A stretch of 64,000 nucleotides of DNA from Escherichia coli (GCF_003334765.1 NZ_QOWT01000014.1), one strand, 5' to 3'. Positions 54,100-55,112 are shown, counted from the first letter of the stretch. The notes: a model not told the origin generated them from the letters alone. Numbers and translations are program-made.

Positions 54100-54318
54100 T
54101 TACCATTCCTCGCGCAGCTTACGCTGATATTCGACACCATCTTCCTCACACCCTTGCCAGATGCCAGGAACACTGGTTCTTGCTGTTTGCGATTGATTTA
54201 TCAGGTATTGATCTACCGCTTCCCTTAATAGGTCCGCACGAGGAAGATTACGCTGCACCTCGAGATCATCAAGTTGCTTAATCACCTCATTCGATAAATC
54301 GAGTAAAATTCTGCCCAT
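54100..54318 (-). CDS. yiiF: small ribbon-helix-helix (CopG/Arc-like) putative regulator; gene name assigned by synteny
   Basis: Track ORF 80 aa to 54342; internal ATG at 54318 gives 72 aa [39 protein letters not shown]; start choice uncertain. Confidence 0.75.
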
Positions 54319-54434
54319 ATCTATACCTGCCAGAGAGTTCATAAATATCTCGCCAATATCATTTTTGAATCTATGGAGAGAAAAGTACCCTTGCCGAATC
54401 TTTAAAGAAAGCTCATTTACGCATCATTTTTTAT

Positions 54435-54476
54435 TTTTGCGAGGCGTTTTCCAGATATGATGTAACAGTTGCAGTT
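54435..54476 (-). promoter_or_regulatory. conserved upstream element, copy 1 (before yiiF); contains sigma54-like TGG-N9-TCGCA on minus strand
   Basis: TTTTTGCGAGGCGTTTTCCAGA plus GTTGCAGTT; the 22-bp core is identical in the copy at 54872-54893. Confidence 0.4.
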
Positions 54477-54559
54477 ATTATAAGTTCAAGTAAAACAGCC
54501 TTGTATTAATACCAGAATAAGGGCATCTGTTTTTTATATTCAAGAATGAAAAATTTTTG

Positions 54560-54778
54560 TCATTCCTTATGCTCCTTACACTGATCATCAACACCAACTA
54601 CCTCCCCCTTTTGCCTGCCTCCCTTTGCTTTACGCACCGGGAATTGCTGACGTTCCAGATATTGCTCTACCGCTTCGCGTAAAATTGCAGATCGTGAAAC
54701 CTTACGCCAGCCCCGAAGCTTGTTCAGCCGTTTAATTGCCTCTTCTGATAAATGAAGAAAAACCGTATTCATCGCCAT
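54560..54778 (-). CDS. yiiE: small ribbon-helix-helix (CopG/Arc-like) putative regulator, paralog of the downstream gene
   Basis: Track ORF 81 aa to 54805; internal ATG at 54778 gives 72 aa MAMNTVFLHLSEEAIKRLNKLRGWRKVSRSAILREAVEQYL; start choice uncertain. Confidence 0.75.
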   Translation of the reverse strand: MAMNTVFLHLSEEAIKRLNKLRGWRKVSRSAILREAVEQYLERQQFPVRKAKGGRQKGEVVGVDDQCKEHKE

Positions 54779-54871
54779 TACCAATACCTTACATATATTA
54801 CTCATTAATGTATGTGCGAAAATTACGCCGGAAAATCATTTAAAAAAAGCGGATTTTTGCATGTTGTTTTG

Positions 54872-54914
54872 TTTTTGCGAGGCGTTTTCCAGAAATAATA
54901 AGAGTGTTGCAGTT
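54872..54914 (-). promoter_or_regulatory. conserved upstream element, copy 2 (before yiiE)
   Basis: Same 22-bp core and GTTGCAGTT block with 1-nt spacing difference relative to copy 1. Confidence 0.4.
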
Positions 54915-55112
54915 GTTTCATTTATTACTCAAAAATGGTTTAGTTATCGCCCAGGATGAATTATGGGTGCTATGAATATATTATATTCAGAGATATTTAT
55001 TTGCATAATCTGAATGGTGTAGCCGAAAAACGTCAGCATCCTAACAGCACCAGGATTTAAGGTGAAATTAATCTTTCATCACAGACCGGTCAGTACTGCC
55101 ACCAACCGGTCT

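Follow-up and report, generated by a model that had tools for sequence, protein, structure and literature searches.

The yiiE-yiiF locus of Escherichia coli K-12, a probable remnant of a decayed and duplicated vapBC module with a repeated distal element

The small genes yiiE and yiiF of Escherichia coli lie head to tail on one strand, and each is preceded by a copy of a nearly identical block of 43 nt. They were analyzed in a 64-kb stretch of DNA (NZ_QOWT01000014.1), hereafter the window, which is E. coli K-12 sequence running antiparallel to that of MG1655 and 100% identical to K-12 derivatives. The original prediction, made from the sequence, took the block for a duplicated sigma-54 promoter. 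The locus is very probably the remnant of a decayed, duplicated vapBC toxin-antitoxin (TA) module in which yiiF is an orphaned vapB. The best overall explanation, which we hold to be reasonably probable, is that this module stood between fabY (yiiD) and fdhE and that the repeat is a distal element inherited from it, not a promoter.

YiiF is a full-length relative of VapB antitoxins. Its gene (54100-54342, minus strand; RefSeq) encodes 80 residues, or 72 from an alternative start at 54318, and the structure of YiiF itself has been determined by nuclear magnetic resonance (PDB 2K5J). Residues 2-80 align with residues 2-82 of chain A of PDB entry 7BY2 over the full length (E = 3e-29), the matching partner in 7BY2 and 7BY3 being an 82-residue 'CopG family regulator'. 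As cited in later papers, this protein is the VapB of the crystallised Klebsiella pneumoniae VapBC, the VapC activity of which was studied (Kang et al., 2020, J Med Chem; via PMC11117207 and PMC12652419). The alignment includes the C-terminal segment that gives the toxin-binding peptide of the Klebsiella antitoxin, GMEYQRQL, which reads DGVEYQRKL in YiiF. Full-length YiiF homologs on plasmids of Burkholderia, Robbsia, Rhizobium and others directly precede VapC genes of the PIN type.

The genomic setting is shared as well. In Citrobacter freundii and K. pneumoniae, the order is fabY, a divergent alpha/beta-hydrolase gene, a CopG gene, vapC and fdhE, and the CopG proteins are 76% and 68% identical to YiiF, respectively. 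A YiiF relative with the same upstream layout is found in 12 further loci of Citrobacter, Pseudocitrobacter and Salmonella enterica diarizonae, and vapC occupies this position in Citrobacter, Klebsiella, Salmonella diarizonae and a divergent Escherichia lineage. The last of these (its protein is named from Escherichia sp. E4694) has fabY, yiiE, yiiF, a gene for a 124-residue PIN protein (vapC) and fdhE in that order; since yiiE, yiiF and the PIN gene occur together there, the duplication that gave yiiE would have preceded loss of the toxin. Among the loci compared, which carry L numbers here, an intact PIN toxin gene lies directly downstream of the antitoxin gene in L022 and L023, as it does in Citrobacter, Klebsiella and Pseudocitrobacter, but not in K-12.

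In K-12, only fragments of vapC are found (53807-53927, minus strand), and the locus is therefore a remnant rather than a functional VapBC module. The 5' fragment (53863-53927, about nt 26-91 of vapC) is 76% identical by blastn to the intact vapC of L022. The 3' fragment (53807-53862), which includes the stop codon, was detected by tblastn with VapC residues 102-124 (E = 2e-6) and shows 85% identity by blastn. About 213 nt of the middle of the gene are gone, and a K-12-type insertion of 163 nt with repetitive extragenic palindromic (REP) elements (53928-54090), which has no counterpart in L022, parts the fragments from yiiF. The 3' fragment carries an additional deletion of 15 nt. Neither fragment is annotated between fdhE and yiiF in the RefSeq record inspected, and the REP-type palindromic repeats at 53916-54055 give sub-threshold Rfam matches to the REP-derived families naRNA4 and ES036. 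It had been proposed that YiiE and YiiF might be orphan antitoxin-like autoregulators; for YiiF, a full-length VapB ortholog with vapC remnants downstream, the orphan antitoxin part of that proposal stands.

The second gene, yiiE (54560-54778, minus strand; RefSeq), probably encodes a diverged paralog that still binds DNA. YiiE and YiiF are 40% identical over 58 residues (E = 3e-12), and the Pfam ribbon-helix-helix (RHH) family RHH_1 matches YiiE at 1.6e-11 and YiiF weakly, at 0.009, which together with the RefSeq coordinates confirms that the two are tandem, head-to-tail RHH paralogs on the minus strand. The yiiE and yiiF units align over their whole length, and outside the block their identity is 63% between block and ATG, 61% in the RHH codons, 58% in the C-terminal tail and 48% further upstream. 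The duplication thus covers an upstream region together with its gene, as had been surmised, although the block within it is probably not the promoter. The alignment of YiiE with K. pneumoniae VapB extends over the RHH part only, and the conserved tryptophans are gone from the YiiE tail. The residues of the DNA-facing strand differ altogether, being T-V-F-L-H-L in YiiE and R-I-L-L-D-L in YiiF.

Selection on yiiF appears to be relaxed, as judged from ratios of nonsynonymous to synonymous substitution rates (dN/dS), which are rough values drawn from few substitutions: 0.3-1.4 for yiiF among vapC-less E. coli, 0.05 for vapB with vapC present (Citrobacter versus Klebsiella) and 0.13-0.33 in pairwise comparisons of yiiE. 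Values for K-12 versus Citrobacter were left out because of a 2-codon offset in the alignment. Among the E. coli alleles compared, the RHH domain of yiiE is invariant and every change falls in the tail, and this strict conservation of the DNA-binding domain suggests that YiiE has been recruited as a regulator and is not simply decaying. The locus resembles those of orphan (solo) antitoxins and other degenerate chromosomal TA loci in that the antitoxin has outlived its toxin, in the apparent relaxation of selection on yiiF and in its place in a strain-variable island; YiiE departs from them by its strictly conserved DNA-binding domain. Both proteins also give weak, sub-threshold NCBIfam matches (E ~0.003-0.005) to PRK11675, 'LexA regulated protein', which we take to be the YbfE family, a curious match given the LexA box of the ancestral locus described below.

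The repeated block, delimited by alignment of the two units and a motif scan, lies at 54434-54476 upstream of yiiF and at 54872-54914 upstream of yiiE, both on the minus strand. On the coding strand it reads AACTGCAAC-N13-CTGGAAAACGCCTCGCAAAAA, a pattern found at these two sites with 0 mismatches, where 0 occurrences are expected by chance. The near identity of the blocks ahead of the two genes, already noted in the original prediction, amounts to 84% over 43 nt and includes a perfect run of 22 nt; the gap then described between conserved stretches exists as well, and it measures 12 nt in both copies instead of 11-12. Of 5426 complete E. coli genomes, 5413 carry the block, and the median copy number is 2. 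Conservation across genera is limited to a core, TGGAAA-N4-CTCGCAAAA in K-12 (54435-54453 for yiiF and 54873-54891 for yiiE, minus strand) and TGGAAA-N4-CTCGCA(A/G)AA more generally, the flanks of which diverge; the AACTGCAAC flank is confined to Escherichia. This core is conserved in Citrobacter, Klebsiella, Pseudocitrobacter, Salmonella diarizonae and the divergent Escherichia lineage, while its four central bases vary (GCGG, GGTG, GTGG, GCGC, GTGC, ACGC and ACGT).

The position of the core is also nearly constant. A LexA box starts 72-73 bp upstream of it in most loci (at -64 in one), and the TGATATAC of the proximal promoter begins 91-92 bp downstream in nearly all vapB/yiiF units, TGATAT(A/T) being found at +91/+92. 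The sequence between the core and either the LexA box or the promoter is poorly conserved. A further copy lies in the same orientation beside the divergent hydrolase gene, ahead of a relE-like/nadS unit, in E. coli MLI109, Seattle 1946 and FDAARGOS_1256 and in Pseudocitrobacter. The core is thus reused in one orientation ahead of three units, namely vapBC, yiiE and relE-like/nadS.

The core might be read as an activator-dependent sigma-54 promoter of the -24/-12 type, which would give each RHH gene a leader of about 85-95 nt. The GG-N10-GC spacing on which this reading was built is indeed present, and exact, in the candidate 17-mer CTGGAAAACGCCTCGCA (54438-54454 and 54876-54892). The TCGC at -12 is also that of glnAp2 (TTGGCACAGATTTCGCT), TGG and GCA are invariant across genera around the four variable bases, and the orientation and distance to the downstream unit are conserved. 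The score of the 17-mer argues in the other direction. The scan suggested in the original prediction was run with a position weight matrix (PWM) built from 135 motif-containing sites identified by chromatin immunoprecipitation and sequencing (ChIP-seq) (Bonocora et al., 2015; PMC4591121). It gives CTGGAAAACGCCTCGCA 4.69 bits, below all 135 bound sites, for which the leave-one-out minimum is 5.26, the 5th percentile 9.3 and the median 13.8. The score of the candidate is equalled or exceeded by 229 17-mers in the window. The same matrix places the two ChIP-validated sites of the window first and second, which serves as a positive control. These top hits, at 52362-52378 (plus strand) and 867-883 (minus strand), are the published sites IS47, inside fdoI, and IS48, near metF; their motifs are about 184 nt closer to each other in the window than the published motif centres.

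The composition of the element differs from that of sigma-54 promoters such as glnAp2 in other respects. It has TGGAAA where they have TGGCAC, its spacer is G+C-rich, and A at both positions 5 and 7 is found in 0 of the 135 ChIP-seq sites. Conservation across genera extends to non-consensus bases (TGGAAA, CTCGCA). Occupancy has been reported neither in vivo nor in vitro: the high-stringency tables and the low-stringency list of the ChIP-seq study contain no peak at 4076-4078 kb and do not mention yiiE, yiiF or yiiD, and its authors had anticipated occupancy of every sigma-54 promoter whatever the growth condition (Bonocora et al., 2015; PMC4591121). H-NS occupancy could in principle hide binding in vivo, but the three genes are also absent from the paper on in vitro RpoN genomic SELEX (systematic evolution of ligands by exponential enrichment; gSELEX), an assay with no H-NS to interfere. 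No enhancer-binding-protein gene is present in the neighbourhoods listed. It is very improbable that the repeated block is a sigma-54 promoter, and the activator-dependent version with a leader ahead of each gene can be given hardly any weight; a very weak promoter of this kind, missed by the published maps, is a less likely reading of the core than the regulator site discussed below. A better sigma-54-like match, CCGGCGTAATTTTCGCA (54815-54831, minus strand), lies about 37 nt upstream of the yiiE ATG and, at 12.98 bits, is the sixth best of the window. It was rejected as a sigma-54 site: no ChIP-seq peak is listed for it, the yiiF copy lacks it, and some Escherichia sequences have a mutation in its GG or GC.

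The transcription start site (TSS) mapped in an ortholog also lies away from the core. In K. pneumoniae MGH 78578, transcription of KPN_04185 ('yiiF') starts 4 nt before the ATG, after ...GGTGATATACTTGAGGTA (Kim et al., 2012; PMC3415461, supplementary table). This TSS sits at a sigma-70 extended -10 of the TGnTATACT form, about 85 nt downstream of the GC of the core, and the core lies about 95 bp upstream of it. In the orthologs, a conserved inverted repeat, ATATAC-N5-GTATAT, overlaps both the extended -10 and the TSS and is the likely VapB operator. It is preferred to the distal block in this role because distant VapB homologs, those of Burkholderia, Robbsia and Rhizobium, have arrays of GATAT/ATATC 15-40 nt before their start codons. 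The Burkholderia and Robbsia proteins share the strand motif of YiiF, R-I-L-(V/L)-D-L, and the Rhizobium homolog is more diverged.

By comparison with its orthologs, K-12 has an altered remnant of the proximal promoter and operator (54343-54362, minus strand), in which ATGATATTGGCGAGATATTT replaces TGATATACTGGAGGTATAT and two direct GATAT are present. Each of the five vapC-less E. coli sequences inspected has the altered site (TGATATTGGCGAGATATT). Where vapC is intact or only truncated, the inverted repeat, the extended -10 and the Shine-Dalgarno sequence are mostly preserved, and a few of these loci show single-base variants. The K-12 locus shares with Klebsiella vapBC its position between fabY and fdhE and the distal element upstream, and differs from it by the loss of VapC, of which two fragments remain, by the altered proximal repeat, -10 and Shine-Dalgarno sequence, and by the extra paralog yiiE.

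The element could alternatively serve as an auxiliary operator for the RHH proteins themselves (YiiF/VapB, VapBC or YiiE), through which the units of the island would regulate themselves and one another. It travels with RHH genes, and its half-sites, TGGAAA and TCGCAA, lie some 10-11 bp apart and are alike at 4 of 6 positions as direct repeats, an arrangement that would suit a dimer of dimers. Arc and CopG bind DNA in this way. The fixed distance of 91-92 bp to the proximal operator could permit looping. On the other hand, the GATAT/ATATC signature of the VapB family, in Enterobacteria and distant homologs alike, is proximal to the promoter and absent from the block, which makes autoregulation through the block, as originally proposed, unlikely. 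Simple autoregulation is further argued against because YiiE and YiiF differ at every DNA-facing position behind identical copies of the element. The element is also found ahead of the relE-like/nadS unit, and it lies far upstream of the mapped TSS. An auxiliary RHH operator is therefore an unlikely function for the block.

The orthologous loci (L002, L011, L024, L026 and others) carry a near-consensus LexA box, CTGT-N8-ACAG (for example CTGTATGGATATACAG), between the divergent hydrolase gene and vapB, and a TATAAC-like hexamer follows it. Near-consensus boxes also occur in those E. coli strains in which the hydrolase gene has been retained. In K-12, alignment with these boxes reveals a degenerate remnant, CTGGTATTAATACAAG (54500-54515, minus strand), in which the CTGT and ACAG arms are not intact, so that it does not count as a LexA box. 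The boxes suggest SOS control of vapBC, or of the hydrolase, in the orthologs. Among chromosomal TA and small-toxin loci of E. coli, dinJ-yafQ, yafNO, tisB/istR and symE are controlled by LexA. The orthologous vapBC loci are like them in having a LexA box, at a fixed distance upstream of the element and vapB; they may differ in that the putative box could serve the divergent hydrolase instead, and K-12 retains only the degenerate remnant.

Conservation and fixed phasing point to protein binding at the repeated block, and we give about even chances to the element being a distal control or architectural site bound by a protein. A more specific proposal, that the 19-bp bipartite core is the site of a regulator or architectural protein coupling a small chromosomal TA island to a common input, possibly the SOS response, is considerably more tentative. 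Several points weigh against reading the repeat as a distal, non-promoter element. Two hexamers about one helical turn apart with a variable centre are also what a bipartite promoter would show, and the same can be said of three different units having them upstream in one fixed orientation. The Klebsiella TSS is that of another species and is supported by 4 reads; E. coli start sites for yiiE and yiiF were not found in three supplement sets. None of the transcription factor motifs considered for comparison (a CRP-like TGnnA-N6-TnnCA, the IclR/AllR half-site TGGAAA, the marbox, SdiA, PurR, IHF and Fis) fits both the sequence and the spacing. The identity of the two K-12 copies could come partly from gene conversion. 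Lastly, some E. coli lineages have a degenerate core (TGGATG...) in the yiiE copy, which is therefore not under constraint everywhere.

A further possibility is that the repeat has no function of its own, its identity in K-12 reflecting the history of duplication or a short gene-conversion tract. This would agree with the restriction of the AACTGCAAC flank to Escherichia, with stretches of identity between the two copies that are even longer in other E. coli lineages than in K-12, with the decay of the yiiE copy to TGGATGCCGTCTCGCA in certain lineages, and with the silence of both H-NS-bound genes in K-12. It does not account well for a core kept between genera where the flanking intergenic DNA has diverged beyond recognition and where the spacing to the LexA box and the promoter is almost invariant. 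The core ahead of the relE-like unit, similarly, is conserved between E. coli and Pseudocitrobacter despite differing flanks, and a perfect run of 22 nt in DNA that is about 60% identical is improbable by chance (~0.6^22 per position). We consider a functionless repeat improbable.

Other candidate functions of the element were rejected. A consensus scan detects no sigma-70 promoter at the element, and inspection of both strands by eye yielded no acceptable -35/-10 pair with a legal spacing. An open reading frame of 32 codons over the yiiE copy (54823-54921) has no start codon in the yiiF copy; Citrobacter and Klebsiella differ from K-12 in reading frames and stops, and substitutions between genera would be non-synonymous in the frames inspected by eye. 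As for an RNA element, no Rfam match was found there, and RNAalifold of 14 orthologous leaders gave -0.5 kcal/mol with no covariation. The core does not appear to be an intrinsic part of relE/nadS modules, since three plasmid-borne homologs have palindromic operators of their own and lack it. A literature search for the element sequence returned no matches.

The overall explanation includes the following history. In the ancestral layout deduced from the orthologs, a divergent alpha/beta-hydrolase gene would have been followed by a LexA box, 72-73 bp, the core, 91-92 bp and a promoter, this last being a sigma-70 extended -10 (TGnTATACT) overlapping the presumed VapB operator ATATAC-N5-GTATAT, and then by vapB and vapC. 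In Escherichia, a tandem duplication of the upstream region and vapB would have given rise to yiiE, which may then have kept an invariant RHH domain and lost the toxin-binding motifs of its tail. Later, in E. coli, vapC was presumably lost by internal deletion and REP insertion, which would have left yiiF as an orphan antitoxin gene with altered proximal operator, -10 and Shine-Dalgarno sequence. The repeat seen today would correspond to the ancestral distal element extended by the Escherichia-only AACTGCAAC flank.

Decay has also taken other routes. In E. coli without yiiF (L027, 6463-6500, matching the region in L007), the distal element and the last 50-60 nt of vapC are directly fused. A microhomology of 9 nt, CGCAAAATA versus CGCGAAATA, lies at their junction. 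The deletion reaches into the 3' end of vapC and ends exactly at the element, which might recall an att-like recombination or cassette junction, yet the microhomology indicates a simple deletion and not site-specific recombination. This fusion is a third, independent decay route of the module. In other E. coli, the hydrolase gene is still present upstream of yiiE, together with a relE-like/nadS module. The relE-like/nadS units have promoter-proximal palindromes of their own, for example GTACGTCAATGACGTAC in the case of E. coli Seattle 1946 and TTTTCGTATACGAAAA in that of a Salmonella plasmid (L007, 4481-4540, minus strand, and L028-L030), which are presumably NadS operators.

In RefSeq, the gene order on an identical stretch is fdoI and fdhE (plus strand), yiiF and yiiE (minus strand), a small pseudogene fragment and fabY/yiiD (minus strand). 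The spacer between yiiE and fabY (54920-55630) is AT-rich, with about 33-35% G+C, and the incomplete 'hypothetical protein' fragment of RefSeq maps within it, at about 55155-55271 on the minus strand. The K-12 form beyond about 55156 is common to only about 2000 of the 5426 genomes; in other strains, the spacer contains a hydrolase gene, a relE-like/nadS module with small open reading frames, or insertion sequence elements.

In K-12, both genes are largely silent in H-NS-bound DNA. Association of yiiE with H-NS is reported in two datasets, and its expression is increased 2.5-fold under SlyA overexpression; a transcription-termination (bicyclomycin) dataset reports activity of yiiF. The AT-rich yiiD-yiiE spacer, and not the element, contains a weak RpoS gSELEX peak, at about 55520 by our own coordinate mapping.

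The genes yiiE and yiiF have been among the uncharacterised 'y' regulators of K-12, and the analysis offers an evolutionary explanation for both: yiiF would be a VapB antitoxin orphaned by deletion of vapC, and yiiE an older duplicate with a strictly conserved DNA-binding domain. Testable partners follow from this, namely the VapC proteins of the divergent Escherichia lineage or of Citrobacter, and an operator of the GATAT type. A tempting but unsupported sigma-54 assignment is removed, and what remains is a short non-coding element that several enterobacterial genera have conserved at a fixed spacing. The result is useful but modest, in that it adds another case of the known decay of such loci rather than a new mechanism.

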